A program made the position numbers and the translations under genes. 64,000 nt of DNA from Candidatus Bipolaricaulota bacterium (GTDB lineage: Bacteria > Patescibacteriota > Patescibacteriia > UBA11705 > DATKZF01). Position 1 is the stretch's first letter. Every line of letters begins with the position of its first letter. This document shows positions 1,412 to 61,640 of this stretch, one piece after another. The notes under the pieces were generated by a model. The model did not search any database and was not told where the DNA came from. It saw only the letters and a list, made by a program, of their open reading frames with translations. Location: contig DATKZF010000002.1 in assembly GCA_035528115.1 (NCBI GenBank), positions 5,751-69,750 on the forward strand, read 5' to 3'.

Positions 1412-1425
1412 AAAAACAGCCCAAC

Positions 1426-5149: not shown

Positions 5150-5179
5150 AAGCTACAAAATTAACAACTTATAAGTAAA

Positions 5180-5899: not shown

Positions 5900-5944
5900 A
5901 TACTAAAAGTGCTTAAATCTTTGCTTGAGAAACAATAAGGGCAC

Positions 5945-6100
5945 AACACCTAACAAAGTTTGTGGGGTTCATAAATTTCGCTAATTTGATGCTTAAATAG
6001 CGGTACCAAAATTTATTCTCCCAAATGCTTCGGCGGTGAGTCGCTCCGCTCCAAATTATACCGCCTCGCACTTCCCACAAACAGAAACGTTATACGACAT
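5945..6100 (+). repeat. attC-like structured repeat 3
   Basis: cacctaacaaagtttgtgggg ... cccacaaacagaaacgttatacgacat. Internal ctccaaatt and gcttcggcgg hairpin. Confidence 0.55.
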
Positions 6101-6147
6101 ATGACTTCGGGGGCACATTTATATATTACAAAGTTTATTTTTAAAAT

Positions 6148-6909
6148 ATGAAACCCATTTACATTAAAAAAGAGGTCGCACTCAAAAAAGTTTCAGCAAA
6201 ATACAAGCCAATTGTTAAAGATGTTAAATCTGAATTGCTGAAATTTTCTGATAAGATTCACAGCATTTATTTGTATGGAAGTGTTGCCACAGGAAAAGCA
6301 AAATCTCCAACCTCTGATTTAGATTTAGTTGTGGTTCTAAAAGCAAAACCAACATCAAAACTTAAAACTCAATTAAAAGAATTAGAAAATTCACTATCAC
6401 AAAAATATCAAAAAATATTCAGAGAAGTTGGTTTTGCAATCACTTACAAAAATGAAGTTTTAAGAGGCAAAGAAGCATTCGGTTGGAGATTTTTTCTCAC
6501 AATTTTAAGCGTGAAAATTTTTGGAGATAATCTTTTTCAAAAAGAAATGAAGTTTAGCCCGACAAATAAATTAGCAAGAAATCTGCATTCAGATGTTGAT
6601 GAAAATATTGAAGAAGCAAAGAAAAAAATCAAATCTTCAAACGATCAAGAGGCTAAACTTCAAATAAAATCAATAATGAAAAAGATTATCAGGACAGCCT
6701 TCTCTATTGTCATGCAGGATGAGAATTATTGGACTACTGATCTTGATGAAATGACAAAAATTTTCACTAAACATTATCCTGAAAAGAAACAACAAATAAA
6801 TGCTGTTTTGAAATTAGCAAAAAGCAAATCGCCAGATAAAAAGAGTGCGACCTCAATTCTTAATAATTTTGGTAAATGGGTTTCATCGGAATATTTTAAA
6901 AGAGTGTAA
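6148..6909 (+). CDS. nucleotidyltransferase, AadA/ANT(3'')(9)-like aminoglycoside adenylyltransferase fold
   Basis: N-terminal Pol-beta NTase motif LYGSVATGKAKSPTSDLDLVVVL (hG[GS]...DhDh) and ~150-aa helical C-terminal domain, as in AadA. Classic integron cassette gene class. Confidence 0.6.
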   Translation: MKPIYIKKEVALKKVSAKYKPIVKDVKSELLKFSDKIHSIYLYGSVATGKAKSPTSDLDLVVVLKAKPTSKLKTQLKELENSLSQKYQKIFREVGFAITYKNEVLRGKEAFGWRFFLTILSVKIFGDNLFQKEMKFSPTNKLARNLHSDVDENIEEAKKKIKSSNDQEAKLQIKSIMKKIIRTAFSIVMQDENYWTTDLDEMTKIFTKHYPEKKQQINAVLKLAKSKSPDKKSATSILNNFGKWVSSEYFKRV

Positions 6910-6911
6910 TG

Positions 6912-7093
6912 TGCCCCCTGCGTCATACGCTGCGCTCCACTTCGTTACGCTTGGGGACGCTGCGCTTTCGTCGCTACGCTCCTCACCCTCGTATAACAAG
7001 GATTATGAGGAAAATGGCTCGGCTCGCCATTTTCCCAAATTTGCTCCACTTCGTTCCGCAAACTTCTCATAATCCTGACGTTATACGCAATTC
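6912..7093 (+). repeat. attC-like structured repeat 4 with upstream GC-rich module
   Basis: cgtataacaaggattatgagg ... cctcataatcctgacgttatacgcaat. Upstream cgctgcgctc module shared with repeats 2 and 5. Confidence 0.55.
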
Positions 7094-7240
7094 AAAAAAT
7101 ATTTTTCTTAAGGTAAAATGATGATAGGCTTTCTAAAAGGAATAAATTTGATTTTTTCTTTATTATAGAGGGGGATAATATTGTGTTTTCTCCGCTACAA
7201 AAACGATTTATTTATAAATTTTAGATTCTAAACATAAAGT

Positions 7241-8046
7241 ATGGAAACAATAATTAGAAAAGATTCGGAAATTAAAGGGAAACACTCGCTGTTTTTTGTG
7301 GAGTTCATGGAAATGAGAAAGCTGGAGTATATGCGGTAAATAAAATTCTAAATAATATTGAAATCAAAACAGGAATTGTTTATTTTGTTTTTGCTAATCC
7401 TAAGGCTATTGAAGAAAACAAAAGATTTATTGATAAGAATTTAAACAGATGTTTTTTTGATAATCAAAATGGTGAGTCTTATGAAGAAAAAAGAGCAAAA
7501 GATTTAATTAAAATTTTAGAATTATCCGATGCCCTTCTTGATGTTCATGCAAACAATAGTCCAGAGACCATACCATTTGTAATTACCGACAATGGTTTTG
7601 ATGTAGTCAAAAATATGAATTTTGAAATTATTGCTACTGGTTTTGATAATCTTGAACCTGGGGCAACTGATGGATTCATGAAAAACAAAGGGAAAATAGG
7701 AGTTTGTATAGAGTGTGGATATTCTGGCAAAAGCGAAGAAAATATAGATATAGCATACAATTCGATTATTCAATTTTTACAACATTTTAATGCTATAGAC
7801 CACATAATCCCAAGCTATAATATCAAACAAAAAGTATTACATGTTGATAAAGTTCAAAAAGTAACATCAAAAGAGTTTAGTCTAATAAAGACATTTAAGG
7901 ATTTTGAAATAATTAAAAAAGGTTTTGTTATTGCTAAAGACGAAATGAATGAATATTCTGCTGACAAGGATAGAGTAATTTTATTTGGAACGCCTGGAAA
8001 GCCGATTGGAGCAGAAGCATATATTTTAGGTACTTGGATAGAATAA
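7241..8046 (+). pseudogene. succinylglutamate desuccinylase/aspartoacylase (AstE/AspA, M14-like) family gene, frameshifted
   Basis: ATG frame gives METIIRKDSEIKGKHSLFF then a stop. The +1 frame continues VFCGVHGNEKAGVYAVNKIL (HGNE zinc-ligand motif) through to DHIIPSYNIKQ...ILGTWIE. The break falls in a T6 homopolymer at 7292-7297. A T7 run would restore one ORF. Confidence 0.6.
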
Positions 8047-8173
8047 GGAGTTTTGAAAATGAAATTCACCCCCAACCCCTCTTTCATTTTTCAAAACGGA
8101 AAAAATCAAATTTATAAGAAATGAAGAAAGCATATCATAATGAATAAGAACGAAAAATATTTTTTGAACTCAA

Positions 8174-8315
8174 GCCACGCTGCGCTCTCCTCCTTTCAGT
8201 CGTCGGGGCGTATAACAAGGGATATACGGTTCAGCCCTCGGCTCGAGCATCACCCAAATTTTTCTTTCGCTTACGCTACAGAAAAACTTCGTATATCCCA
8301 AACGTTAGGCGAAAT
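8174..8315 (+). repeat. attC-like structured repeat 5 with upstream module ccacgctgcgctctcctcctttcagtcgtcgggg
   Basis: cgtataacaagggatatacgg ... cgtatatcccaaacgttaggcgaaat. Confidence 0.6.
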
Positions 8316-8396
8316 TGCTTTTTGCTTTTACAAAGAAGAAGGCCACCGACGATGTCGCCGATGGCCTTGTGGATCTGGGGTGCGGGCGGCTCCTCG

Positions 8397-8552
8397 CTAA
8401 CCCTTCTTTGACCAGGGAAAGTCCGAAGCGAACCAGATCAGGAGGATGATGGCCCAGAGTGGGCTCGCTGACTGTGTGATGTACATCCCATAGCCGATGA
8501 GTCCTGCGCCACTGACCAGAGCCACGGCGCCACCTACGTCCTTCGCGTTCAT
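8397..8552 (-). CDS. small hydrophobic peptide (51 aa, two predicted TM helices), GC-rich, reverse-oriented in cassette
   Basis: Minus-strand ORF MNAKDVGGAVALVSGAGLIGYGMYITQSASPLWAIILLIWFASDFPWSKKG with GAGGT 6 nt upstream. Below the 60-aa ORF-track cutoff. About 60 % GC versus about 30 % around it. Confidence 0.3.
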   Translation of the reverse strand: MNAKDVGGAVALVSGAGLIGYGMYITQSASPLWAIILLIWFASDFPWSKKG

Positions 8553-8754
8553 GAGGTACCTCGCTAGTTGCGAAAAAACAGATCCCCAACCATGAGGAGC
8601 CGCCCTTTCTGGTTGACAGAAAAACTACTCCAAACCACGTTTGGACAATGACTTTAACATATTACTACATCTAAGTCAACCCCTCACCGAGCAAAAAGCA
8701 ATTTGTTCGCTCCGCTCACATTTGCTCCCGCTGGTCGCAAATTAAAAAAGCAAC

Positions 8755-8891
8755 TACGCCTAACACTGCATAGCCGGCTCGTTCTTTTCCGAAAGAGCTC
8801 ACCCAAATTGCCTCCTCAACAAATATGGTGTAAAATTCTACCACACTTATCTCGTCGGCAACTTCGGCTATGCAGGAACGTTAGCTGAAAT
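8755..8891 (+). repeat. attC-like structured repeat 6
   Basis: cgcctaacactgcatagccgg ... ccggctatgcaggaacgttagctgaaat. Inner hairpin tggtgtaaaattctaccaca. Confidence 0.6.
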
Positions 8892-8939
8892 AGCCTCAAA
8901 TCCTTTCTTGTTTGTAGAAACTCACTAAATAGTAAATAT

Positions 8940-10133
8940 ATGCAAATTATCAAAAAAATATTCAACGGTAAAACCAGCAAATCAGTGTTAACTATGGGCA
9001 TTGTTGCAACATTTCTCCAAATATCAATAGCCGCTTATGCTGTAATTAAGCCAATAAGTCTGAAGAGTGATTTAACACTTTTTTATGGGATTGTAGTTTT
9101 AGAGCTAATATTTTTCCCAATAAGTCTTTCAATAATTTTTTCTTACCTCCTAAATAAAGTTAAGTGGCTTGATAAAAAATCATTTCTGATCACATTCCTT
9201 GTTACGTCTTTATTTATTGTAACCGCTGTAATTTTGGGACAAATGGCTTGGGAACATATCATTCCTTGGGAATTTTGGCTTTTTTATAAATATATAGAAA
9301 TACCTCTAGTCTTTACAGGACTAATTGGCATTCCCTTGATTTATCTTTTGGGATATTCCGGTTGGACAGTTTTCACCTTTGTAATGATAATTGGAATATT
9401 TGTTACCGCTTTTTTGGTTGCTGCTCTTTATTCCTACACAACCCATCTTGCAATCAATAAGAAAAAACAATCTTTTAGAATAATCCTTACAGTAGCCCTC
9501 ATTTTATCTATTGGATGGGGGATATTTCAGGGAGTAAATGAAGCATATGTAAAAAGATTATCTCTAAAAGGTGAGTGTGCTGCAGGACTTAACTTTTACC
9601 AGTGTGACAATTACAGTAACCTTGGAAATAGTTACCACAGATTAAATGATGACATCTATTACAACCTAGGCTATGTAAACGCTGTAAAAATCGACGATGT
9701 CGACATTAATTCCTTTCAAGTGATCAATATCGATTCACTGCGTGTGTCAATTGCCAAAGATAAATACAGAGCATATGCCAATGGGGAAATAATACCAATA
9801 AACAATATTGATTCATGGAAAATCATGGAAGGAGTAGATAATTGGGGCTACTCATCAGACGATAAAAATGTATTTTTCGGAACAAATATTCTAGACGGTG
9901 CCAATCCAGAAAGTACATTTCTCATTGAAAACAGATATGCATGCAATAATGATTTTGTTTACTTTGGAGATAAAATTATTGAGGACGCAGATCCAAGCTC
10001 CTTTGTAACACTGAATTGTGGCGGCTACACAAAAGACGATAAATCATACTATTTTTATGGAGAAAAAATTATTGAGGATGAAACTGGATGCAGAGGTCAA
10101 GATATAATTGACAGCAAATGTGAAATAAAATGA
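8940..10133 (+). CDS. hypothetical polytopic membrane protein with C-terminal extracytoplasmic domain
   Basis: About 6 hydrophobic helices in the first 200 aa. C-terminal 190 aa are hydrophilic and Asp/Asn/Tyr-rich. Confidence 0.45.
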   Translation: MQIIKKIFNGKTSKSVLTMGIVATFLQISIAAYAVIKPISLKSDLTLFYGIVVLELIFFPISLSIIFSYLLNKVKWLDKKSFLITFLVTSLFIVTAVILGQMAWEHIIPWEFWLFYKYIEIPLVFTGLIGIPLIYLLGYSGWTVFTFVMIIGIFVTAFLVAALYSYTTHLAINKKKQSFRIILTVALILSIGWGIFQGVNEAYVKRLSLKGECAAGLNFYQCDNYSNLGNSYHRLNDDIYYNLGYVNAVKIDDVDINSFQVINIDSLRVSIAKDKYRAYANGEIIPINNIDSWKIMEGVDNWGYSSDDKNVFFGTNILDGANPESTFLIENRYACNNDFVYFGDKIIEDADPSSFVTLNCGGYTKDDKSYYFYGEKIIEDETGCRGQDIIDSKCEIK

Positions 10134-10153
10134 CAAGAGATTCGAGGCTACAT

Positions 10154-10244
10154 CAGCTAACAGCGTATATCTGGCTACACTTCGTTTCGCCCATATTACT
10201 CCCTGCGGTCGCAACATCAGATATGCGCGAACGTTAGGTGAAAT
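10154..10244 (+). repeat. attC-like structured repeat 7
   Basis: cagctaacagcgtatatctggc ... cagatatgcgcgaacgttaggtgaaat. Confidence 0.6.
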
Positions 10245-10302
10245 ATTTTTTGAAAATTTTTTAGATTTTTAGTATTTTTAATAGGCTTTAAGTAATATTA
10301 CT

Positions 10303-10746
10303 ATGAAGAAGGAAACTATTCGCCAAATTCAAAGAAAAGTTATTAGATTGTTGCGTAAAAACAATAATAAACCTCTTTATCTGTCATCAACAGACAATTG
10401 TAGTGAAATTGCACGGTTGGTTGGTTGTTGGATTTTTGACAAATTACCTCAGGCTAAAATATATATTTTAAAAGGTAAAAATATACTAGGCACAAAAAAA
10501 TGCCATGACATTTTAGCAGTAGAATACGACAAGCGCATTTCCCTTATCGATCCAACAGTGTGGCAATTTTTCAAGAATAAAAAGAGTATTCTTATTAAAA
10601 CAACAGACAATTTGACGAATGGTTTATTTGAAGCCAGCAAAATATATCGCAGCAAATGGAAAGTCTCAGAAATATTTAAAAAGAATAATTATAAAAATGA
10701 TGAACTTAAGAAAATTGTAGCTTCAAATATTAAGGACTTAAAATAA
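10303..10746 (+). CDS. hypothetical protein (basic, Lys-rich)
   Basis: ORF only. No recognisable motif. Confidence 0.4.
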   Translation: MKKETIRQIQRKVIRLLRKNNNKPLYLSSTDNCSEIARLVGCWIFDKLPQAKIYILKGKNILGTKKCHDILAVEYDKRISLIDPTVWQFFKNKKSILIKTTDNLTNGLFEASKIYRSKWKVSEIFKKNNYKNDELKKIVASNIKDLK

Positions 10747-10817
10747 AAAACGTTATAACACCAGAGAGAAAGCCTATCAAAAATCAAAATTAAGGAACAA
10801 AAATTTTCAAAAAATAC

Positions 10818-10845
10818 AACACCTAACACGCACTTACCAATACAG
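10818..10845 (+). repeat. attC-like 5' remnant (cacctaacacgcacttacc) fused to truncated kinase fragment
   Basis: Only the R''/L''-like half is present. No matching 3' half. Confidence 0.35.
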
Positions 10846-10853
10846 TTGATATT

Positions 10854-11090
10854 TTGGATTTGTTTGATGCAGTTTTTTTGCTTCAAATTTCTGCCGATAC
10901 AATAAGAAAGAGATTGATTGAAAGAACAGAGGTAGGAGCATTCGGTAAATCGGATGATGAAATAGCTGATATCATGAGATGGAAAGATGAATTTGTCAAA
11001 ACAATGATAACGCGTGGCGCAATATCAATTGACGCAGAGAAGGGTGTAAACGAAGTTGTTGAGGAAATTTTATTAAGGAGATTAAAATAA
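10854..11090 (+). pseudogene. C-terminal fragment of a P-loop kinase paralogous to 11141-11695 (truncated)
   Basis: LLQISADTIRKRLIERTE...EVVEEILL parallels FLDASPEVIRQRLTGRY...QVAELILN of the downstream kinase. No Walker A region is present. Preceded by an attC remnant. Confidence 0.45.
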
Positions 11091-11140
11091 TTTAACATTA
11101 GGCTGACTTATAGCAAAGCAGTCTTAATGCAAAAAAAAAT

Positions 11141-11695
11141 ATGAATAAACTCTATTTTATCAGCGGAGTGAATGGGGTGGGAAAAACCTCAATTATGCCT
11201 TTCCTAAAGACATTGTTGCCAAGTAATCAATTTGAAATACATGATTTTGATGAAAGAGGGGTACCGGAAAAGGCTGATGGTAATTGGCGTATTTCTGAAA
11301 CTAAACACTGGGTAGATTTAGGAGTAGGATTGGGATCAAGAGATAAAAACGTTATCGTTTGTGGATTTGTAAAACCCGCAGACTTTCAGGAAATGCTATC
11401 GGATGATTCACTTGGCATCACTTTGATTTTTCTCGATGCAAGTCCGGAAGTTATTCGTCAGCGTTTAACTGGTCGATATACAAAAGACGGTTATTTTGAT
11501 GAATCCCAAATGGTAATTGGCAAGCCAATTGATGTTTTTATTGATGGGAATATTTATATTTCAGGGCAAATGAAAAAAATATTTGAAGAATTAAATTGCT
11601 CAATCGTTGATACATCAAATTTAAGTCCAGAAGCAGTTGCAAGGCAAGTGGCTGAATTAATCCTAAATAATTTTAAAGTTTATATGGCCCCATAA
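11141..11695 (+). CDS. P-loop NTPase, small nucleotide/nucleoside kinase-like (AAA_33-type)
   Basis: Walker A GVNGVGKTS at residues 9-17. Size and layout typical of small kinases. Exact substrate unknown. Confidence 0.6.
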   Translation: MNKLYFISGVNGVGKTSIMPFLKTLLPSNQFEIHDFDERGVPEKADGNWRISETKHWVDLGVGLGSRDKNVIVCGFVKPADFQEMLSDDSLGITLIFLDASPEVIRQRLTGRYTKDGYFDESQMVIGKPIDVFIDGNIYISGQMKKIFEELNCSIVDTSNLSPEAVARQVAELILNNFKVYMAP

Positions 11696-11821
11696 AGGTG
11701 TTTTGGGCTTCGGGCATTCACCCCTTTAATTCCCCTTTGCCTTTCGCCCAAAACAGAAAAAGAAATTTGAAAATTTTTTAAAACAATTCCGACTGCTGTC
11801 GGAAAAAAGAAAAGGAATACA

Positions 11822-11931
11822 TCAGCTAACAACGAGTATCCGGTTACGGCTTTTATCCAAAAGCCTCCACCCAAATTTTTCTTCCGCTACGCTACAGAAA
11901 AACTTCGGATACTCGTAACGTTAGGCGAAAT
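11822..11931 (+). repeat. attC-like structured repeat 8
   Basis: cagctaacaacgagtatccgg ... ccggatactcgtaacgttaggcgaaat. The 3' arm has an extra GT relative to the 5' arm (unpaired bases). Confidence 0.65.
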
Positions 11932-11950
11932 AACACAATAAACATCTCTT

Positions 11951-12268
11951 ATGAAAAAGTTGAAATTTATTCTAAGCATAATTTTTTTAGCTTTCATTGC
12001 AATTTCAATAATTTCTTACAATTATTATTCGTTAATAGATAATCAATCGAACCATACGGGGTTAGATTTAATGAAAGTTAAAATATTCTATCTAGGATTT
12101 TCATTAATTGCGATTGTTGTAGCGCTAATAATAAAATCAAATAAAAAAGCTAAAAAAAATTTCATTATTTCCAGTATATTAGGATTAGTTTTCATTTTTA
12201 ACATTTGGATATTCGAAAAAACAGAAATTATGTTGTATTACGAAGATTGGGTTACCTGCTGCATGTAA
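11951..12268 (+). CDS. small membrane protein (3 predicted TM helices)
   Basis: Hydrophobic 105-aa ORF. Single-ORF cassette. Confidence 0.4.
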   Translation: MKKLKFILSIIFLAFIAISIISYNYYSLIDNQSNHTGLDLMKVKIFYLGFSLIAIVVALIIKSNKKAKKNFIISSILGLVFIFNIWIFEKTEIMLYYEDWVTCCM

Positions 12269-12284
12269 AATTATTGTGTTTCAT

Positions 12285-12396
12285 CGCCTAACAGCGTATA
12301 AACGGTTCCATTCGTTCACCCAAATTGACCAGTGATAAGCCTTCGGCTAGTATATCACAGGCCAACTTCGTTTATGCGCCGGACGTTACGCAAAAT
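12285..12396 (+). repeat. attC-like structured repeat 9
   Basis: cgcctaacagcgtataaacgg ... gcgccggacgttacgcaaaat, with imperfect stem. Inner hairpin ccagtgata/tatcacagg. Confidence 0.55.
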
Positions 12397-12416
12397 TCAA
12401 ATAACCCAAAATTATT

Positions 12417-13088
12417 ATGAAAAAACCACATTACCTTTCACCAGTTAGTAAAATATTTTCAGCTATCGCTGGCAGGACGGAACCAATGAAAGTAAGGATT
12501 GAAAATTATAATTTCGTAGTATTACCAAAAGTATTTCCATCTCATGAATTTAGAGCAGCAAAATGTCTCCCAAAAAGTATTAAAGAAATAATAAAAAACA
12601 AAACAGTACTATATATGGGTTGTGGTTTTGGTATGGTGGGTATTTATTCATTACATCATGGTGCGACAAAAGTTATACTAGCAGACATTAACCCGTATGC
12701 TGTTGAAAATGCAGAAATAAATAAAAAGTCACACAAATTCAGTGATGATCAAATAATGATTTACGAGAGTGATTGTTTTGATAATATCCCAAAACAGACA
12801 TTTGATGTATTAATATTCAACCCACCGTTTAATACTAATGGTAAACCTACAAGCGACGTATTAAGAAAATCTCTATGGGATCCGGGTTTTACTTCATTAA
12901 AAAAGTTCCTGGGAAGTGCCAAGGACTATATGAATATTAGCAGTAAACTCCTGATATACTACTCAGACAGAGGTGATATTAAAACGTTGGAAAAATTATT
13001 TGGTCAATATTTGTATAGATGGAAGCTTTGGAAAGTGTTCAATAAAGACCAAAAATTTGACAATAGGATCTATGTTCTTATTAAATAA
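12417..13088 (+). CDS. class I SAM-dependent methyltransferase (NPPF motif; HemK/RsmC-like small MTase domain)
   Basis: Gly-rich SAM motif LYMGCGFGMVGI, acidic ILADIN, and catalytic DVLIFNPPF. Confidence 0.65.
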   Translation: MKKPHYLSPVSKIFSAIAGRTEPMKVRIENYNFVVLPKVFPSHEFRAAKCLPKSIKEIIKNKTVLYMGCGFGMVGIYSLHHGATKVILADINPYAVENAEINKKSHKFSDDQIMIYESDCFDNIPKQTFDVLIFNPPFNTNGKPTSDVLRKSLWDPGFTSLKKFLGSAKDYMNISSKLLIYYSDRGDIKTLEKLFGQYLYRWKLWKVFNKDQKFDNRIYVLIK

Positions 13089-13125
13089 AATTATATTGGT
13101 AAATCCTATTAGGTTTTTTGAACTT

Positions 13126-13255
13126 CGTCTAACACGGCGTACACGATATTCCCTCGTTCACTCCGGTGGCCACTCGCTAGTCAGTCTCTCCGGCCGCGAG
13201 TGTACCACCTCCGTTCGCTCGGGACATCGCGTGACGCCGGAACGTTGCACAAAAT
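13126..13255 (+). repeat. attC-like structured repeat 10 (last in array)
   Basis: cgtctaacacggcgtacacgatattccc ... gggacatcgcgtgacgccggaacgttgcacaaaat. Confidence 0.5.
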
Positions 13256-13263
13256 CGCTCGCT

Positions 13264-13299
13264 CCGCCTGCCGGCAGGCAGGCAGGCTCGTTTTTTTTT
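13264..13299 (+). terminator. GC-rich palindrome gcctgccggcaggcaggcagg + T9: rho-independent terminator at array boundary
   Basis: Hairpin followed by a 9-T run. The GCAGGCAGG motif recurs at 29.56, 32.52-32.6 and 33.85-33.9 kb. Confidence 0.5.
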
Positions 13300-13418
13300 A
13301 ATTGCCAAAAACCGCATATATTGATAAAATTCAATTGGAGTTTGATGCCGGTTGCGAATCATTTCAATAAAAATGCTTTTAGAGAGCGCACAAGCAAAAG
13401 CGCCAAAGGAGGACGATC

Positions 13419-13625
13419 ATGGGCTTTGGGACCAGACTGCCGACGAGCAACGACCCGCCGCCATCAGCTAAGGGCAAGAGTCCGTGGCTCGGGGCAAACG
13501 AAGAATTTGGCCTTGACGAATTCTGCCTTGTGATCAACCGCAAAACAAGGCAATGCGAGGGTTGCAAACGAATAACTCATGTTCGTCACCTGGACGCCAA
13601 TGGAAGATGCCCTGACTGCCGATGA
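13419..13625 (+). CDS. small zinc-ribbon protein (CEGC ... CPDC)
   Basis: AGGAGG RBS 6 nt upstream. Two CxxC pairs 17 residues apart. Confidence 0.5.
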   Translation: MGFGTRLPTSNDPPPSAKGKSPWLGANEEFGLDEFCLVINRKTRQCEGCKRITHVRHLDANGRCPDCR

Positions 13626-22055: not shown

Positions 22056-22063
22056 TTACTTTA

Positions 22064-22168
22064 TTGTTACGAGATTTACAAGATTTTTGTACAAAATCTT
22101 ACAGATTATATAGTTCCATATCTTGTACTATCTGGTATGTAAATCTTGTAGATCTCGTAACTAACATA
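22064..22168. repeat. YGTAA short-repeat array (TCTTGTA / TCTCGTAA units)
   Basis: gttacgagatttacaagatttttgtacaaaatcttacag...atcttgtactatctggtatgtaaatcttgtagatctcgtaac. Confidence 0.5.
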
Positions 22169-23799: not shown

Positions 23800-23808
23800 A
23801 TTTTTTTG

Positions 23809-23866
23809 AATTTACAAGATTACAAGATCAGTGTACAAGATATACAAGATTCCTAATCTTGTGACT
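23809..23866. repeat. YGTAA short-repeat array (TACAAGA x4, inverse orientation)
   Basis: aatttacaagattacaagatcagtgtacaagatatacaagattcctaatcttgtgac. Confidence 0.5.
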
Positions 23867-24254
23867 TTTTCTGATGCTCAGGATCATTTACGACTCGACG
23901 AACCTGAACTTCTTCGCTATTAAATAAAATTATCAGGCCTAATCTCAAATCTGTTGCCACAAGATATTCATATAATTGATCAAAATGTTTTTTTATTATT
24001 TTTTTTCCGACTTTCAATTCAACTAGCATTTTATTTTCTATCAAGAAATCCGCTCTCCTTCTGACAGAGTATTTCCCCTTATGCAATAAATTTATCGCAT
24101 ATTGCCTTTGGACACGAATGCCCTTCTCCATTATCATTTGATAAGCTATATCCTCATAATATCTTTCCCTGAAGCCAAAATCATTTTCATTATAAACCTC
24201 AAAAAATATTCCAATTATCTTATCACTCAAATCTTTATAATAAAACTCTGGCAT
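23853..24254 (-). CDS. GxxExxY family protein (PD-(D/E)xK-like)
   Basis: IIGIFFEVYNENDFGFRERYYEDIAYQMIMEKGI and ADFLIENKMLVELK match the GxxExxY family. Paralog at 35371-35745. Confidence 0.6.
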   Translation of the reverse strand: MPEFYYKDLSDKIIGIFFEVYNENDFGFRERYYEDIAYQMIMEKGIRVQRQYAINLLHKGKYSVRRRADFLIENKMLVELKVGKKIIKKHFDQLYEYLVATDLRLGLIILFNSEEVQVRRVVNDPEHQKKSQD

Positions 24255-24262
24255 ATATTAAC

Positions 24263-24370
24263 AATCTACAAAATCACGAGATCAACGTACAAGATACCAA
24301 ATACGCTAATCTTGTACATCTTGTAATCCGTATAATCTTGTAACGCAATATCTTGTAATCTCGTAAATTA
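24263..24370. repeat. YGTAA short-repeat array incl. ~55-bp unit catcttgtaatccgtataatcttgtaacgcaatatcttgtaatctcgtaa
   Basis: Near-identical unit recurs inside the GT4 ORF at 31096-31160. Confidence 0.55.
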
Positions 24371-24371
24371 A

Positions 24372-26715: not shown

Positions 26716-26777
26716 ATTTTTTCATCGATCACGTATCATGGATCACATATCATTTCGAAATGCCCCATGTTCCATGA

Positions 26778-29552: not shown

Positions 29553-29640
29553 GGGGGGCAGGCAGGTTGTCCACTTTTTGGCGTCAAAAAGTGGGTCGGC
29601 GCCGCCCCAAATGGGCAAGCCGAAACCCATTCTAATTTTA
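29553..29640 (+). repeat. GCAGGCAGG structured element, copy A
   Basis: ggcaggcaggttgtccactttttggcgtcaaaaagtgggtcggcgccgccccaaatgggcaagccgaaac. Hairpin stem covaries with copy B. Confidence 0.5.
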
Positions 29641-29652: not shown

Positions 29653-30258
29653 TTATAAAAAATTTTTGGACTCTTTTAATATTGTCAAATCTCTCTGTAA
29701 GATCATCTTTCCGATTTGATCGTCTGTTGTATCATTTTCAAATAATTCAATAGCTTGCTCAAAATTAACCCAGAGCAATTTAAAACCGAATGCTATTTCT
29801 TTATCTGTAAAGGATGTTTTTCCTTTATTTCCATCAACAACGGCCACATAACAATAAGAAGTGGAGATTTCTTTAACATTGTCACGGTACTCCTTAATAA
29901 TTCCCAACTCTTTAATATTCTTTATTTCACATCCGACTTCTTCCAGGCATTCTCTCTTTAAGGTTTCAATAGGTGTTTCATTTCCCTCAATTCCGCCACC
30001 CGGCAATTTATGATAATCATATTTCCCCACATAAAGCAAAGCCACCTTGAATTCTTCATCAAAAATTACGGTTCTGGAAGCTTTTATTACTTTATAATCG
30101 TCCCTTGGCAAGGCCTCCCTTTCCCTAGCTCTTTGATAAATTGTTTTCAGCATTTTCATAATCGCTCCTTGTTTTCGTAATTTTTGTAGCCGATTAGTAG
30201 ATTCGTAGCTTAATCGCCCAAAATCACTTCCAACGTCTCGCGAGCGCATTTTTCCCAT
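29653..30258 (-). CDS. NUDIX hydrolase
   Basis: Nudix box GGGIEGNETPIETLKRECLEEVG. Confidence 0.75.
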   Translation of the reverse strand: MGKMRSRDVGSDFGRLSYESTNRLQKLRKQGAIMKMLKTIYQRAREREALPRDDYKVIKASRTVIFDEEFKVALLYVGKYDYHKLPGGGIEGNETPIETLKRECLEEVGCEIKNIKELGIIKEYRDNVKEISTSYCYVAVVDGNKGKTSFTDKEIAFGFKLLWVNFEQAIELFENDTTDDQIGKMILQRDLTILKESKNFL

Positions 30259-31400
30259 GAAAATCTCTTTATATTTTCAAAACCTTTGGCGATCAATTCT
30301 TTTCTTAAATTTTCATCAGCGTCAATTTTGTTCATGGCTCGGACAATTTCTTCTTTGCTTTTCGGATCGATCAATAAAGCCGCGTCTCCCGCCACTTCGG
30401 GCAAACTGGTCGTATTGGAACAAATCACCGGGCAGCCGCAGGCCATGGCTTCCAGCGGCGGAATGCCGAATCCTTCATACAAACTCGGAAAAACCAAGGC
30501 TCTCGCGCCGGCCGTTAATTTTGACAAGTCCTCGACGCCCACCCAGCCCGGCGTGATAACGTCTTTTTGCAAGCCGAACTTTTCAATGTTTTCTTTGACG
30601 CGCTCAAAACCGTGCGTCACGAACCCGGAACCGGTTTTTGTATTGCCAACTAAAACCAACTTGCACTCCGGTCGCGATTTTTTGAATTCAGCGAAACATT
30701 CCACCAAAAACGGCGTGTTCTTTTTTTCTTCCAGTCTGCCCGTAAAAATGAAATAAGGTGAATTCAAACCGTATTTTAATTTGATTGATTCGATTTCTTC
30801 AGCCGGATAAATTTTATAATTGCCGGCGTCAAATCCGTTATAAACCACTTTTATTTTTTCAGCCGGAATTTTAAAAACATCCATTATTTCTTTTTTGGAA
30901 AATTCGGAAATGGTGATTATTTTCCAAGCAGAAAATTTGGCGAAACGAAGAGCGTATTTATGATAGACAATATCGTACCAAGGATAAATTTTCGGAAAGC
31001 GCTCAAAGCCTATATCATGCATGGTCACCACGGTTTTCTTCGGATGAAAAAGAGGAATGACATGCGCGGACACGAACAGCCTATCAGGCTCCTTTCCTGT
31101 TTTATCTCGTACATCTTGTAATCTGTATAATCTTGTACAAAAATCTCGTAATCTCGTAACCAACATTTCATAAGACAACCGAAACTGCGTCCACAATCTG
31201 CCCGGCGGCCAATTCAAAATTTTCTCCTCAAAATTTTCAGGACAGTTTTCCAGCCCATCTTTTAGCGGAACATTGGTATATAAAAAATAGCGGTTTTCTT
31301 TATCCAATTTTTTAAACCACTGAATCAAATGATATGAATACCACTCGGTACCCGTTTTATTGGGCTTATTGGCCCGAGAAGCGTCGATGCCAATTAACAT
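30210..31400 (-). CDS. family 4 (GT-B) glycosyltransferase carrying an in-frame 66-nt repeat-derived insertion
   Basis: C-terminal EGFGIPPLEAMACGCPVICS (GT4 E-x7-E region). Residues VTRLRDFCTRLYRLQDVRDKTG are encoded by a copy of the TCTTGTAA repeat unit (31096-31160). Confidence 0.8.
   Translation of the reverse strand: MLIGIDASRANKPNKTGTEWYSYHLIQWFKKLDKENRYFLYTNVPLKDGLENCPENFEEKILNWPPGRLWTQFRLSYEMLVTRLRDFCTRLYRLQDVRDKTGKEPDRLFVSAHVIPLFHPKKTVVTMHDIGFERFPKIYPWYDIVYHKYALRFAKFSAWKIITISEFSKKEIMDVFKIPAEKIKVVYNGFDAGNYKIYPAEEIESIKLKYGLNSPYFIFTGRLEEKKNTPFLVECFAEFKKSRPECKLVLVGNTKTGSGFVTHGFERVKENIEKFGLQKDVITPGWVGVEDLSKLTAGARALVFPSLYEGFGIPPLEAMACGCPVICSNTTSLPEVAGDAALLIDPKSKEEIVRAMNKIDADENLRKELIAKGFENIKRFSWEKCARETLEVILGD
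31096..31160. repeat. YGTAA repeat unit inside GT4 coding sequence
   Basis: cctgttttatctcgtacatcttgtaatctgtataatcttgtacaaaaatctcgtaatctcgtaac is near-identical to the intergenic copy at 24318-24370. Confidence 0.6.
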
Positions 31401-31479
31401 ATTAGGTTATTAGGTAATTAGGTTATTAGGCAAAAACCACTATCCTGTGAATCTAAGAACCTAATAACCTACAAGCTCG

Positions 31480-32487: not shown

Positions 32488-32518
32488 ATTTAAGCGTATT
32501 CTTGAGTATCTTGTAATT

Positions 32519-32606
32519 CCTGCCTACCGGTCTTCGACTCCCGTTCGGCCACGAGCTCACGGCCGAGTGGCGAGCTCAGACTCGAGGAGCAGGCAGGCGT
32601 AACAAA
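32519..32606. repeat. GC-rich palindromic element cctgcct...gagcaggcagg
   Basis: Terminal inverted CCTGCC/GGCAGG motifs enclose an 75-bp GC-rich core in an otherwise AT-rich spacer. Confidence 0.4.
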
Positions 32607-32650
32607 TAACATAAAAGATTGATAGCCGATTGTAATTCGTAACACGCGCT

Positions 32651-33759: not shown

Positions 33760-33960
33760 TTCACATTTCCAGCACCAGGGGTCTGGGGGAAAAGCTGAGC
33801 CATAGCGCGATCCTGGTAATTTAATCGTCGCATCGCGAATCTTTTTCCCCCAGAACTTTCCTGCCTGCCGCCTGCCTGCCGGCAGGCAGGGCAGGCAGGT
33901 TGCCTACTTTTTGGTTACAAAAAGTAGGTCGACGCTGCCCCAAATGGGCAAGTCGAAACA
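33760..33960 (+). repeat. GCAGGCAGG structured element, copy B, with upstream 12-bp-stem palindrome ctgggggaaaag/ctttttcccccag
   Basis: cctgcctgccgcctgcctgccggcaggcagggcaggcaggttgcctactttttggttacaaaaagtaggtcgacgctgccccaaatgggcaagtcgaaac. Confidence 0.5.
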
Positions 33961-35322: not shown

Positions 35323-35370
35323 ACGACTACGAATCTACGAACATTCTACCTATACTACCAAAACAATAAT

Positions 35371-35745
35371 ATGACGGAGATCCTGTATAAAGATTTAAGT
35401 TATGTATTAAATGGCATCTTCTTTGACGTCTATAACACAATCGGTTACGGAAAACGGGAAAAGGCCTATTGCCAAGCGATCATAAAAGCTTTATACAATA
35501 ATAAAATAAAGTTCCTCTATCAATTCAAAGTCCCTTTAATTTATCATGAACATAAAATCGGCAATAGATATGCGGATTTTTTTATTGATGATAAAATTAT
35601 TGTCGAAATCAAAGTTGGAAAAACAACTTCATCTGATTTCAATCAAATAAAAGAATACCTGAACGTATCCGGATTAAAATTAGGATTATTAGTTGCATTC
35701 AAAAAAGAAGAAGTGAAAATATATAGAGTCCTCAATTTATATTAA
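35371..35745 (+). CDS. GxxExxY family protein
   Basis: LNGIFFDVYNTIGYGKREKAYCQAI ... YADFFIDDKIIVEIK. Paralog of 23853-24254. Confidence 0.6.
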   Translation: MTEILYKDLSYVLNGIFFDVYNTIGYGKREKAYCQAIIKALYNNKIKFLYQFKVPLIYHEHKIGNRYADFFIDDKIIVEIKVGKTTSSDFNQIKEYLNVSGLKLGLLVAFKKEEVKIYRVLNLY

Positions 35746-35756
35746 TCATCCTTTCC

Positions 35757-35803
35757 TAGTCTCCATGTTTTCGTAGGATTCGTAACCTTCCGTAGTTTCG
35801 TAG
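35757..35803. repeat. 45-bp TTCGTAA/TTTCGTAG repeat unit (copy 1)
   Basis: ctccatgttttcgtaggattcgtaaccttccgtagtttcgtagtc is near-identical to 39943-39987. Confidence 0.55.
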
Positions 35804-35805
35804 TC

Positions 35806-51973: not shown

Positions 51974-52038
51974 AGGGATAGATAAATCTATCCCTTTAGG
52001 CTGACTTTGTCAGCCGGTTAGGTGGCGCTATGGCGCCA
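51974..52038 (-). terminator. three consecutive hairpins (gggatagataaatctatccc; ggctgactttgtcagcc; gtggcgctatggcgccac) downstream of giant gene, at the 33->65 % GC junction
   Basis: Perfect short palindromes read directly. T-rich tract after the first hairpin on the minus strand. Confidence 0.45.
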
Positions 52039-55000
52039 CGCCGCAGTCAAGAGGACACGAGTCCGGGGTCTCGTTCTGGGAGCAGAACAGATCCCCGCAC
52101 ACTTCCCCGCAGTCGGCCGGGCACGAGTTCGTGGTCTCGCTCGCCCGACAGACGGAATCTCCGCAAACGACGCCGCAGTCGGCTCGGCAAGAAACAGTAT
52201 CTTCACCGAGGCCGCAGAAGCCGTCGCCGCAGGACGAGCCACAGTCGCTCGCGCAAGTGACCGGCGTTTCAGGCGCCACGCACGCGCCGTCTCCGCAAAT
52301 CACCCCGCAATCGGCCGGGCAGTTGATGGTGTCCTCGCCGACTCCGCAGAAGCCGTTGCCACACGGTTCTCCGCAATCAGCCGGACACGTTCTGGTGTTT
52401 TCGTTCGCGCTGCAGAGTGTGTCGCCACACTCCCAGCCGCAATCGGCTTCGCAGTTCACGGAACTCTCGAAGCCGTTGCAAATGCCGTCTCCGCAGAGCG
52501 ACCCGCAATCCGCGGCGCAGTTGATCGAGGTTTCGACCGCCGCGTCACAGAAAGCGTCGCCGCAATTTTGGCCGCAATCGCCGGCGCAGTTCGCCGACGT
52601 CTCGCCTCCATTGCAGACATGGTCGCCACATCGGGTACCGCAGTCTGCTGGGCAATTCAGCGTGGTTTCGCCGGGAGTGCAGTCGCCGTTGCCGCAGACG
52701 CTTCCGCAATCTGCCGGACAAGTGGCGCTGTTTTCGTTCTGCGAGCAGTAGGCGTCGCCGCATTCCTGTCCGCAGTCCTCCTCGCAGATGGACGAATCCT
52801 CGCTCGCCCCGCAGGTCGTATCGCCGCAAGCGTCGCCGCAGTCGGCGGGACAGCTGGTCGTCGTTTCCGACTCCCCGCATGTACCGTCGCCGCAAGCATT
52901 GCCGCAGTCAGCCGGGCATGTCACCTGCGTTTCCGCGCCGTTGCAGGCATCATCACCGCAAACATATCCGCAATCGCTCGGACACGTCACCGTGTCTTCG
53001 CCGACACCGCAGATCTTGTTGCCGCAATTCTCGCCGCAATCGGCCGGGCACGTCCGGGTGTCTTCGTTCGGCGAGCAGTATGCGTCTCCGCATACCGCGC
53101 CGCAATCGCTTTCGCAGCTCACCGAGTTTTCCGACTCGCCACATACCATGTCACCGCAGGAATCCCCGCAGTCCACGGCGCAGCTTGCCGAAGTCTCGCC
53201 GGCCGCGCAGAAACCATCGCCGCATTCCAGGCCGCAGTCGGCCGGGCAATTCAGCGTGGTCTCGGTCCAGTTGCAGGCACCATCCCCGCAGGACGAGCCG
53301 CAGTCAAGTGGACAAATCCACGTGCCTTCGCTCATCGAGCAGTAGCCGTCACCACAGGATTCCCCGCAGTCCGGCAGGCAGGTGGCGCTGCTTTCGTTCT
53401 GCGAACAGTAGGCGTCGCCGCACTCCTGTCCGCAATCCGGTTCGCACGAGGACGAATCCTCGTTCCTGCCGCACGCGCCGTCCCCGCAGATATCGCCGCA
53501 GTCATCGGGGCAGCTCGTCGAGCTCTCGCTCGATCCGCATGTCCCGTCGCCACAGCTGTCTCCGCAGTCCGCCGGACACGTCGCGGAATTCTCGGCGCCG
53601 TTGCACGACGTATCGCCGCAGGTCGAGCCACAGTCCGCCGGACAAGAGGACGTATCCTCTCCGTTGCCGCAAACGCCGTTTCCACAACGCTCACCGCAAT
53701 CGTCCGGACACCTGACCGTGTTCTCTCCGCTACCGCAGAAGCCGTCACCGCAGTTCACGCCGCAATCGCTTTCGCAGCTCGCCGGAGTCTCCGACGATCC
53801 GCACACCGTATCACCGCAGGCATCCCCGCAATCCACGGCGCAGTTCGTCGAAGTCTCGCCGGCCGCGCAATAGGCGTCGCCACACTGCGCCCCACAGTCC
53901 GTGAGGCAACTCCAGGTGGTCTCGCCCCAGTTGCACACGCCGTCTCCGCAGCTCGGCCCACAGTCGGCCGGGCAGTTCATCGAGCCTTCGCTCGAAGAAC
54001 ACCACCCGTCGCCGCAGGATTCCCCGCAGTCCGTCATGCACGTAACCGTGGTTTCGGTCCCGTTGCAGGTTCCGTCACCACACTCAGTGCCGCAATCCAG
54101 CGCGCACGTCACCGTGTCCTCGCTGGTATCGCATGCCCCGTCTCCGCAGTACGGCCCGCAGTCCGCGGGACAGCTCGACGTCGTCTCCGACGCTCCGCAC
54201 GTCCCGTCGCCACAGGCGTCGCCACAGTCGCTCGGGCAGCTCGCCGGAGTCTCGGCTCCGTTGCATGCGGCGTCCCCGCAGTTCGTCCCGCAGTCATCCG
54301 GGCACGTCACCGAGCTTTCACTCGATCCGCACGCCGAATCTCCGCAGAAGTCACCGCAGTCCGCCGGGCAACTTCCCTCGTCCTCCGTAGCCGTATCGCA
54401 CTGACCATCGCCACACTGCGTGCCGCAATCGGTCGCGCAGGTCACGCTGGTCTCGCTTCCGTTGCACCTGCCGTCTCCGCAGGTGACCCCACAGTCAAAC
54501 GGGCAGCTCCACGTGCTTTCGCTCGTCGAGCAGTAGCCGTCGCCGCAGTAGTCCCCGCAGTCCGCCGGACAGGTCGCGCTCGTCTCCGAGTCCGGCGAGC
54601 AATACGCATCGCCGCACTCCACTCCGCAGTCCGCCTCGCAGCTTGCGCTGTCCTCGGTCGAACCGCAGGTGCTGTCTCCGCAGACGTCGCCGCAGTCCGC
54701 CGGGCACGTGGTCGAACTCTCGCTCGATCCGCATGTCCCGTCGCCGCAGGCGTCGCCGCAGTCCGCCGGACACGTCACGGACGTTTCCGAACCGTTGCAG
54801 GCGCTGTCGCCGCAAACAAATCCACAGTCCATCGGGCACGTAATCGTGTCCTCCTCAGGACCGCAGACCAGGTTGCCGCACGGCTCGCCGCAATCTGCCG
54901 GGCAAGTCAGCGTCGTTTCGTTCGGGGAGCAGTAGTTGTCCCCGCACTCAACGCCGCAGTCCGCCTCGCAACTCGCCGAGGTCTCCGACGATCCGCATGT

Positions 55001-58000
55001 CCCGTCGCCGCAGCTGTCGCCACAGTCATCGGGACACGTCGCCGAGCTCTCGCCGTTGTCGCAGAAACCATCGCCGCACTGCGTGCCGCAATCGGCCGCG
55101 CAGCTGATGGTGGTCTCCGCTCCGTCGCACCGGTCGTCGCCGCAGCTGGTGCCGCAGTCAGCCGGGCAGCTCGCCGTACTCTCGTTCGCCGAGCAATAGG
55201 TATCACCGCATGCCTCGCCGCAATCGGCGGGGCAAGTCAACGTCGTTTCGGAGCTCGACGAGCAATACGCATCGCCGCACTCCACTCCGCAGTCCGCCTC
55301 GCAGCTTGCGCTGTCCTCGGTCGAACCGCAGGTGTTGTCTCCGCAGACGTCGCCGCAGTCCACCGGGCACGTGGTCGAACTCTCGCTCGATCCGCATGTC
55401 CCGTCGCCGCAGGCGTCTCCGCAGTCGGCCGCACACGTCGCCGGGGTTTCCGCCGTCGGGTCACAGTACGTGTCCCCGCAGACGAATCCGCAGTCGCTCG
55501 GACACGTCACCGTGTCCTCGCCCACTCCGCAGACCCCATTGCCGCACGGCTCCCCACAGTCAGCAGGGCAGCTCACGTCGCTCTCCGTCGGGGAACAGTA
55601 GTTGTCCCCGCACTCAACGCCGCAATCCGCCTCGCAACTCGCCGAATTCTCAGACTCGCCGCACAGGCCGTCACCGCAGGCATCCCCGCAGTCGGCCGGG
55701 CAGCTGATCGTGGTCTCGGATGCGCCGCAGTAACCGTCGCCACAACCGTCCCCGCAATCGCCGGGGCAGCTGGCGAACGTTTCGAGACCGTTGCAGGTCC
55801 CGTCACCGCATTGCTGACCGCAGTCAGCCGGGCAGTTGATGGTGTCTTCGCCGACGCCGCACACCGTGTTTCCACACGGCTCGCCGCAATCGGTCGGACA
55901 CCTCACCGAGTTTTCGCTCGGGCTACAGTAGTTGTCGCCACAGACTTCGCCGCAGTCCGCCTCGCAGCTCACGCTGGTTTCGGAAGCGCCGCAGGCGCCG
56001 TCAGCGCACACATCGCCGCAGTCCGCGGGACAGGTGACCGTCGTTTCCGACGCGCCACAAGTACCATCGCCGCACGTGTCGCCGCAATCGGCCGGACACG
56101 TCGCGGGAGTCTCGGTATCGTTACAGGCGCCGTCGCCGCAGAAATGGCCACAGTCCACAAAGCACGAAACCGTGTCCTCGTCCGGACCGCAATAGCCATC
56201 GCCACAGGAGTCGCCGCAATCCTCGGGGCAGTTCGAGAAACTCTCGCCGCCGTTGCACGCGCCGTCGCCACAGCTCTGTCCGCAGTCAGCGGGACAGGAA
56301 ACCGTGGTCTCGGCGCCATCGCACCGGCCATCACCGCAGGAAGTCCCGCAGTCGGCCGGACAGCCCGACGTTGTTTCCATGGTCGAGCAGAAGGTGTCTC
56401 CGCAGGCCGTGCCGCAGTCAGCCTCGCAGCTGACCGTGTCTTCGGACAGGCCGCAGATGCCGTCGCCGCAGTCATCGCCGCAGTCGAGCGGGCAGTCCGT
56501 GCTGTCCTCGTTGGTCGCGCAGAAGCCATCACCGCAGAGCTCGCCGCAATCTGCCGGGCAGGTCACGGAGCTCTCGGTGCCGTTACAGGTCCCGTCGCCG
56601 CACTGCATGCCGCAGTCGGCCGGACAGTTGATGCTGGTCTCGCCGACGCCGCAAACCGTGTTTCCACACGGCTCACCGCAGTCGATGGGACACCTAATAG
56701 TGTTCTCGTCCGACCCGCAGTACCCGTCGCCGCAGGAATCCCCGCAGTCCTCCGGGCAAGTGGCCGAGGTCTCGGTGCCATTGCAGGCGGTATCGCCGCA
56801 GGCAGCGCCGCAGTCGGCAGGGCAAGTGACCGAATTCTCATCCGGCCCGCAGTACCCGTCGCCACAGGCGTCGCCGCAGTCCTCTGGACAGCTGGCGGGA
56901 TTCTCAGCGCCGCTGCACGCGTTGTCGCCGCAGTCGTCGCCGCAATCCGCGGGACATTTCGCCGCGGTTTCATCGAAACCGCAGTAACCGTCGCCGCAGG
57001 AGTCCCCGCAGTCTTCGGGACAACTGGAGTAGGTCTCCGCGCCGTTGCACGTGCCGTCGGGGCAGAATTCCCCGCAGTCCGCGAAACACGACGAAGAGCT
57101 TTCCTCAGGCCCGCAGTACCCGTCTCCGCAAGCGGAGCCGCAGTCCTCCGGGCAATTCGCAGTGGTCTCGGCGCCGCTGCAAGCGTTGTCGCCGCAGTCG
57201 TCGCCGCAATCCGCGGGACAGCTGGCCGCGGTTTCGTCGAAACCACAGTAACCGTCGCCGCAGGTATCCCCACAATCCTCCGGACACGTCGCCGGCGTTT
57301 CACCGCCATTGCACGCGCCGTCGGGACACAGCTCTCCGCAGTCCGAAAGGCACGTCACCGTGCTTTCGTCCGGACCGCAGACGCCGTTACCGCAAACCTC
57401 GCCGCAATCGCTCGGACACTTGACCGTGTCCTCGAGACTCGGCGAACAGAATGCGTCACCGCAGGTCGCCCCGCAGTCGATTTCGCAGCTGGTCGTGGTT
57501 TCCGACGCGCCGCAAACTCCGTCACCGCAGTCGTCCCCACAGTCGGCCGGACAGACACCGGAATTCTCACCGGGTCCGCACGTGCCGTCGCCGCAGTTCT
57601 CCCCGCAGTCGGCCGGGCAGCTGGCCGTCGTCTCGAGCCCGTTGCACGAGCCGTCGCCGCAGCTGTTGCCGCAATCGGCAACGCACGAAGCGGTGGTCTC
57701 AGTCAGGGCGCACACCGTGTTGCCGCAGTACTCGCCGCAATCGGCGGCGCACTTGACCGAATCCTCGTCCGCGGAGCAATGGCCGTCTCCGCAGGACTGA
57801 CCGCAGTCAGCCTCGCAGATGGCCGAGCTCTCCAAGGCGCCGCACGAAGCGTCGCCGCAGACGTTGCCGCAGTCGGCCGGACACGAGATCGTGTCTTCGT
57901 CCGGGCCGCAGAAAACGTCGCCGCATTCGTCCCCACAGTCCTCAGGGCAGGCCGCGTTGGTTTCCGTGCCGTTGCAGGCGCGGTCGCCACACTGCATGCC

Positions 58001-59625: not shown

Positions 59626-59637
59626 ATAAGTTAACGA

Positions 59638-61636: not shown

Positions 61637-61640
61637 CTTG

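Follow-up and report, generated by a model that had tools for sequence, protein, structure and literature searches.

An in-frame array of intergenic repeat words inside a GT4 glycosyltransferase gene of a Patescibacteria genome

How does DNA built like the spacers between genes come to lie inside an enzyme gene without destroying it? The question is raised by a GT4 glycosyltransferase gene on a 64,000-nucleotide (nt) stretch of contig DATKZF010000002.1, referred to here as the window, in which a short array of 8-9-nt words lies in frame. An earlier reading made from the letters of this stretch (the sequence-only reading) had proposed an inserted intergenic repeat unit, mobile or recombinogenic and tolerated in coding sequence. 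We find that the GT4 insertion is real and resembles the Rickettsia palindromic elements (RPEs); the mechanism of its spread stays conjectural. The insert is probably a passenger repeat, one arm of a lineage-specific intergenic array, carried at a permissive site of the GT4 gene and changing by insertion and deletion of words and by exchange. The three features on which this view is built are the following.

30210-31400, minus strand: host gene, a retaining-type GT4 glycosyltransferase of GT-B fold, 396 amino acids (aa), intact open reading frame (ORF)
31104-31160, minus strand: in-frame word-array insert of 57 nt, 19 codons, residues 81-99, peptide VTRLRDFCTRLYRLQDVRD
24309-24367, minus strand: near-copy of the insert between genes, forming the 5' arm array on the upstream side of a GxxExxY gene

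The boundaries of the insert were set by comparison with orthologues carrying an empty site. The sequence-only reading was right about the segment and its near-copy, and about an ORF running through it without a stop, and its extent was too wide: the 65 bp placed at 31096-31160 reduce to 57 nt, and the extension of ~22 residues to 19, the KTG that follows residue 99 being native linker by the same comparison. In gene sense the insert is laid out as GTTACGAGAT TACGAGAT TTTTG TACAAGAT TA TACAGAT TACAAGAT G TACGAGAT. A 33-nt core, TCTYGTACATCTTGTAATCYGTATAATCTTGTA, is present in exactly two copies in the window, at 24310-24342 and 31105-31137, with one mismatch, while the number of such matches expected by chance from 100 dinucleotide-preserving shuffles is 0. 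Aligned globally with 24309-24367, the insert agrees in 51 of 60 columns. For the 9-nt word ATCTYGTAA the window holds 13 occurrences where 0.9 would be expected, and arrays of three words are confined to 22120-22159, 23813-23850, 24309-24365 and 31104-31158.

This homology does not extend to a complete repeat unit. RNA folding of the 57-nt insert gives no local hairpin (z -0.9), nor is a hairpin supported in the insert variants of the three genomes that carry one (z -0.9, +0.8 and -0.8). The insert is thus a single arm and not a full palindromic unit. Rfam covariance models gave no match at the gathering threshold over the whole window. We also considered a promoter, and dropped it: the insert holds no sigma-70-like site, and the 27 such sites of the region are no enrichment over the 21 +/- 5 expected.

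Is the segment an insertion, or ancestral sequence lost elsewhere? Among the 120 best homologues of the GT4 protein, mostly ~370 aa long, it is missing in about 115, and it did not turn up in unrelated taxa among the homologues examined. When 26 and 110 sequences are aligned, only the query and two proteins, P0002 (72% identity) and P0003 (70%), show additional residues behind LS(W/Y)EML. Six close orthologues (L004, L005, L007, L128, L129/L133, L130) have a clean empty site, as does every one of the further close orthologues, 65-68% identical, retrieved by a metagenome scan. The empty-site DNA is GAAATGCTG/AAAAAAAGA and reads EML/KKRKK, so that the alignment of orthologues suggested by the sequence-only reading fixes the insertion point exactly. 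Gene order at these loci is mreB-GT4-holB-BNR-frr..., and because the loci are syntenic the compared GT4 genes are true orthologues. The segment is therefore an insertion relative to its orthologues, with the frame preserved. In one of the empty-site genomes (L007, 2492-3604) the GT4 gene is split into ORFs of 218 and 142 aa, a frameshift or a pseudogene.

Three filled sites are known.

Window: insert of 57 nt, peptide VTRLRDFCTRLYRLQDVRD
L003: insert of 42 nt, peptide VTRLRDLLYKIVRD
L001: insert of 66 nt, peptide VTRCALRCDSGWARSVYKILQD

All three inserts lie at the same nucleotide position, begin with GTTACGAGAT at the 5' end and finish with TAC(A/G)AGAT at the 3' end, and their lengths are all multiples of three. 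Since these same-site variants come from independent assemblies of other samples (L001/L002 and L003), the insert is not an assembly artefact. It is old rather than recent, because the GT4 proteins of the carriers differ by 25-33%, and it is still polymorphic across close lineages.

In a neighbour-joining tree of GT4 proteins, built with outgroups and without the insert columns, the sequences form a ladder that starts with the window, passes through L001 and next L003 (with L004) and ends in the empty-site sequences. The two deepest splits have bootstrap values of 100% and 86%, and the carriers make up a paraphyletic grade. In the MreB tree the window pairs with L001, and the carrier L003 with the non-carrier L005. 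A single clean gain was rejected, as the carriers are not a clade in any tree made; every topology calls for at least two gain or loss events, whether a single gain with later precise loss(es) or several gains at one and the same nucleotide.

The source metagenome-assembled genome is named 'Candidatus Bipolaricaulota bacterium' at NCBI. This label is probably wrong, because the close relatives of its GT4, MreB and GxxExxY genes all carry Patescibacteria/Parcubacteria labels.

What has been kept among the carriers is the DNA. The L003 insert matches the window insert at 41 of 42 nt, whereas the two GT4 genes are 72% identical over their whole length and 51% identical at third codon positions. 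Depending on the frame, TACRAGAT yields TR, LRD/LQD/VRD or YKI; all three frames are used, and it is the words that are conserved, not the peptide. In gene sense, none of the three frames of the insert or of its intergenic copy contains a stop, whereas the opposite strand has stops in two of three; hence the orientation in which the insert survives. In L001 it holds a nested GC-rich motif resembling CCCTTCGACTGCGCTCAGGGCAGGC, which occurs between genes in that genome, and in this the insert acts as intergenic DNA does.

A 29-nt block including a non-word spacer (TACAAGATTATACRGATTACAAGATGTAC) is common to the window insert and its intergenic copy only. It was found in 0 of 143 other loci compared, among them the orthologous inserts and the orthologous spacer of L001. 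This distribution suggests a lineage-specific exchange between the two copies of the window, by gene conversion or template switching.

How does the enzyme accommodate nineteen extra residues? Pfam recognizes Glycos_transf_1 (3e-37) and Glyco_transf_4 (2e-10) in the host protein. Its AlphaFold2 model, built with 110 homologues, has a mean predicted local confidence (pLDDT) of 94.5 and a predicted TM-score (pTM) of 0.92, and its best Foldseek matches are MshA, BshA, WaaG and PimB' (E-values 1e-17 to 1e-21). With the two Rossmann domains of a GT-B fold and both glycosyltransferase domains, the protein belongs to the GT4 class. The EX7E motif of the C-terminal domain is kept, E309 being invariant and E317 nearly invariant among the 110 homologues. 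In the N-terminal Rossmann half of the model, the insert follows helix 70-79 and precedes strand 107-110, which agrees with the loop between N-terminal GT-B strands named by the sequence-only reading. The modelled helix spans 70-92, its last 12 residues being supplied by the insert; a loop of residues 93-106 returns to the strand, and pLDDT is 71 over residues 91-100. As modelled, the protein tolerates the insert as a helix extension plus a loop. Other inserts are found in GT4 loops: a distant orthologue (P0027; L138, 627-1808) carries at the same site an unrelated in-frame 27-nt GC hairpin, CCCCGC...GCGGGG, and another GT4 orthologue (P0100; L139, 10001-11248) has in a different loop an in-frame palindrome of ~120 nt with GTCATTCC/GGAATGAC ends. 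On account of these unrelated hairpin inserts, the GT4 loops concerned are permissive.

GT4 is the only clear invaded gene within the window, and a second gene family shows the same phenomenon elsewhere. The pyruvate kinase gene of L041 (506-1939, minus strand) contains an in-frame (TACAAGA)5 at 1615-1650, in the B-domain loop, which encodes IQDTRYKIQDTR. Among 34 Patescibacteria orthologues this loop varies from 0 to 27 residues, and its peptides resemble translated word arrays (ISNFQTISNDQISN, SQISNSQFLISNQ). Array DNA is seen in the pyruvate kinase genes of L142 (8001-9464), as (AATTTCC)n, and of L143 (6001-7503), as ATACGAA ATACGAG ATACAAG ATACAAA.

Where do such words reside outside genes? 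Between 20 and 52 kb of the window, most spacers are built from words of 7-10 nt (TCTTGTAA, TTCGTAG, ATTTGTAA, TTAGGTTA, TCATGA), and of 27 spacers about half are more self-similar in direct or inverted 7-mers than their shuffles. The elements nearest to our subject are listed below.

23853-24254, minus strand: GxxExxY / PDDEXK_3 small nuclease-family gene, 133 aa (PF13366, 1e-24; TIGR04256)
24255-24371, minus strand: whole spacer between the PfkB and GxxExxY genes, an imperfect TACRAGAT/ATCTYGTA hairpin; fold -33.1 kcal/mol, z -4.6
23800-23852, minus strand: 3' arm array downstream of the GxxExxY gene, ATCTTGTA four times in gene sense
22056-22160, minus strand: ORF-less palindromic element of the same words with 18-nt terminal inverted repeats (TIRs), TTACGAGATTTACAAGAT/ATCTTGTAGATCTCGTAA; fold z -5.7
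35323-35805, plus strand: second GxxExxY cassette, with a CTACGAA array at 35323-35370, the gene at 35371-35745 and a TTCGTAG array at 35746-35805
31401-31479, minus strand: hairpin-forming spacer upstream of GT4, made of TTAGGTTA-type words, a different word family; Tandem Repeats Finder score 55, z -3.3
26716-26777, minus strand: ORF-less CATG-word hairpin; inverted 7-mer cover z 3.8

The GxxExxY gene at 23853-24254, in which a D...ELK motif is visible, has TACRAGAT upstream and ATCTYGTA downstream, and its two flanks form a duplex with z -3.2. The same flanking is present at the syntenic locus of L001 and, at a different genomic position, in L141. The gene at 35371-35745 was predicted to be GxxExxY from its flanks alone and then confirmed by Pfam (PF13366, 9e-25; duplex z -3.3). 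A search for GxxExxY homologues, with four proteins, showed inverted arrays in both usable contigs. Genes of a second family, PF05635 (S23p/four-helix bundle), lie between inverted arrays in L001, L054, L063 and L143, and PF05635 is, among the matches listed, the only recurrent family of small ORFs flanking arrays in unrelated genomes. Complementary flanks (duplex z <= -2.7) border 8 of 9 GxxExxY/S23p genes, against 1 of 46 control genes. The array word differs from cassette to cassette, and the cassettes, which sit between protein genes, have the following positions.

Window, GxxExxY: 23800-24371; 35323-35805
L001: 14023-14465; 16955-17489
L140: 1374-1754; L141: 2880-3330; L119: 435-827
L054: 5353-5800; L063: 1055-1508; L143: 3243-3693

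The frr-glyS spacer of L001 contains a PF05635 (S23p) gene flanked by inverted CATGTAA arrays, whereas that of the window holds no such gene, just an ORF-less hairpin built from similar words. From this comparison, ORF-less hairpins may be decayed cassettes. Scans of genome and viral contigs, giant-virus bins included, for three ATCTYGTA words returned mostly unrelated minisatellites among the matches listed, and for this reason are uninformative on homology and host range. We found in the literature searched no description of GxxExxY flanks or of Patescibacteria word arrays.

GC-rich palindromes of the CCTGCCTGCCGGCAGGCAGG type also occur in spacers of the window (13270-13300, 29556-29572, 32520-32610 and 33860-33899) and of L001 (1096-1153, 4060-4110), and are sometimes nested between word arrays, for example upstream of mreB (32488-32650).

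How, then, could the GT4 insert have arisen and persisted? The source unit would be an arm of an intergenic repeat made of 8-9-nt words (TACRAGAT in gene sense), which elsewhere form inverted arms around a GxxExxY (PD-(D/E)XK) gene as well as ORF-less hairpins. A copy would have entered the GT4 gene in the ancestor of a small Patescibacteria clade, landing exactly at the boundary between the L80 codon and the A-rich linker KKRKK, where a helix ends exposed to solvent. It could persist as a passenger thanks to words that are stop-free in this orientation, a length that is a multiple of three and a protein able to absorb it as helix plus loop, the frame being maintained by selection on the enzyme. 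Later changes would have occurred as DNA: words gained and lost, presumably by slippage; in one lineage, a GC-rich hairpin motif nested into the insert; in the window lineage, exchange with the intergenic copy 6.8 kb away, by a putative gene conversion or template switching. Neutrality, like the routes of entry, exchange and loss, is what we infer from these patterns. A broader proposal, which we regard as rather doubtful, is that the arrays are terminal arms of a widespread and so far undescribed class of selfish cassettes resembling the intervening sequences (IVS) of rRNA genes and carrying a GxxExxY nuclease or an S23p gene, that the nuclease or host repair spreads arms and hairpins, and that solo arms landing in permissive loops are a major source of the lineage-specific insertions in GT4, pyruvate kinase and other housekeeping proteins of Patescibacteria.

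Other explanations give the insert a function. It might be an adaptive protein extension, an R/L/D-rich helix favoured because it gave the enzyme a novel capacity, for instance to bind a membrane or a partner. Its modelling as a regular helix extension with fair confidence and its retention in three diverged lineages are in line with this idea, which is nevertheless unlikely: the same words are used in three frames, the peptides VTRLRDFCTRLYRLQDVRD, VTRLRDLLYKIVRD and VTRCALRCDSGWARSVYKILQD differ strongly while the DNA words are kept, and the closest relatives lack the insert or have lost it. The conservation of words at the DNA level across lineages is in line with a possible role at the RNA level, where GT4 mRNA would pair with ATCTYGTA arms, in the same operon transcript or in others, and form double-stranded RNA for RNase III, coupling GT4 expression to the cassette. 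The insert is indeed complementary to the 3' arm at 23800-23852 (-44 kcal/mol, z -10) and to 22056-22100 (z -11.5), and heptamer-repeat IVS stems are RNase III substrates in Coxiella (PMC4990558). However, the pairing partners are 6.8-9 kb away, six close relatives manage without the insert, and its inner sequence and length vary freely among carriers, so that we give this role a low probability.

The remaining alternatives concern origin. Tandem 7-9-mers are prone to slippage, an A-rich tract follows the site and arrays of many different words are present in this genome; a short seed might thus have been expanded in situ by replication slippage, the likeness to intergenic arrays being convergence under the same mutational bias. 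This is very unlikely, as the shared block of 29-33 nt holds non-word spacers (TTATACRGAT) that slippage would not recreate and the empty sites contain no seed word. At the opposite extreme, the insert could result from the recent transposition of a MITE-like element (miniature inverted-repeat transposable element) specific to this genome, in keeping with its 85-97% identity to the copy 6.8 kb off and with the existence of ORF-less palindromic copies having TIRs. We find this hardly credible for a single arm without target-site duplication or TIR pair. A recent hop is contradicted by the orthologous inserts of L001 and L003: variants of 66 and 42 nt occupy the identical site in two genomes whose GT4 proteins differ by 25-33%. 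Of the intergenic repeat unit proposed by the sequence-only reading there remain the repeat homology and one arm.

We retain the passenger repeat as the most satisfactory explanation, and several points weigh against it. No target-site duplication, transposase or TIR pair was found at the GT4 insertion site, where the words are direct only, and the insert therefore does not qualify as a MITE, which is defined by TIRs plus target-site duplication. The GT4, MreB and HolB trees partly conflict and do not fix the number or direction of gains and losses, and the exchange between the insert and the intergenic copy could have run either way. That the words are so well kept from lineage to lineage might reflect a role as DNA or RNA instead of passenger status. 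Finally, that the insert is translated is deduced from the intact, stop-free ORF. The claim that this family is mobile or recombinogenic and tolerated in coding sequence is borne out in substance by the polymorphic site, the two or more events, the 29-nt block and the pyruvate kinase arrays; a transposition signature was not found.

Lineage-specific insertions in conserved proteins are a hallmark of genomes of Patescibacteria, or candidate phyla radiation. The GT4 locus points to a concrete source for them, intergenic word arrays that lack stops in one orientation and that translation can cross where they fall in surface loops, and a second gene family, the pyruvate kinase of other lineages, backs this source. 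It also links two very common families of "hypothetical" proteins, GxxExxY and S23p/four-helix bundle, with repeats arranged as in rRNA IVS, which offers a testable handle on the role of these genes and repeats. In practice, such inserts can mislead gene callers, domain boundaries and phylogenies.

Other parts of the window differ in their repeats. Unusually long spacers in 1-13500 contain a different family of ~100-130 nt (for example at 701-731, 1523-1553, 6070-6100, 8861-8891 and 10214-10244) with complementary ends, ..GCTAACA..GTATGCGG.. and ..CGCATACTGCGGAACGTTAG.., and no Rfam match at the gathering threshold. At ~52 kb the GC content rises from ~0.43 to 0.62-0.66 (52000-64000); Cys-rich tandem repeats of 66 nt (22 codons) fill a 2439-aa ORF at 52022-59341, and similar repeats continue up to 63 kb. 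This region could be a foreign island or a chimeric join.

To which known system does the GT4 array come closest? The closest in function are the RPEs, intergenic repeats also found in frame in housekeeping genes at fold-compatible sites, and described as palindromes of ~100-150 bp with a conserved encoded peptide (Ogata et al. 2000, as summarized in PMC10969869). On the traits given in that summary, the likeness is that of a short non-autonomous repeat that is also intergenic, lies in frame at a fold-compatible position and recurs in related genomes. Intergenic copies are present in the same genome (22056-22160, 23800-23852 and 24255-24371), and the frame is preserved relative to orthologues, with translation predicted here from the intact ORF. 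On the other hand, a palindromic unit with a conserved peptide is not what we find: the array is one-armed, made of 8-9-nt words, has no hairpin (z -0.9) and shifts its words through three reading frames, so that the peptide is not conserved. The host also differs, being a member of the Patescibacteria, where the arrays double as arms around GxxExxY/S23p genes. The GT4 insert is therefore not a member of the RPE family; it represents a different type of repeat, in Patescibacteria.

The neighbouring cassettes echo another system. In the 23S rRNA IVS of Coxiella, RNase III cuts the terminal inverted repeats on either side of an S23p ORF, next to which lie tandem heptamers whose number varies; such IVS are regarded as selfish (PMC4990558). 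Like the IVS of Coxiella and Leptospira, the cassettes of L001, L054, L063 and L143 have a small PF05635 ORF between inverted repeats that form a long stem. This likeness is one of architecture; the cassettes here sit between protein genes and not in rRNA helices, and many of them carry an ORF of the GxxExxY nuclease family instead. A PF05635 or PF13366 ORF with complementary arms, the mark of an IVS-like cassette, is present in the neighbouring cassettes and not in the GT4 copy, which is a solo arm in coding sequence.

ERIC, BOX and REP-type repeats and MITEs are likewise intergenic families sometimes found within ORFs, including as in-frame fusions (PMC10969869). The GT4 insert shares with them the occasional in-frame position of an intergenic repeat inside a gene. 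They are however consensus units with TIRs and often target-site duplications, whereas only word arrays are seen here. In variable-number tandem repeats (VNTRs) or contingency-type coding repeats, as in the heptamers of the short tandemly repeated repetitive (STRR) sequences of cyanobacteria, short units are arranged in tandem and their copy number varies between close lineages. The GT4 insert resembles them in both respects. It differs in that its units are imperfect and are shared, spacers included, with specific intergenic sites, and in that every variant seen is in frame, with no sign of on/off phase variation.

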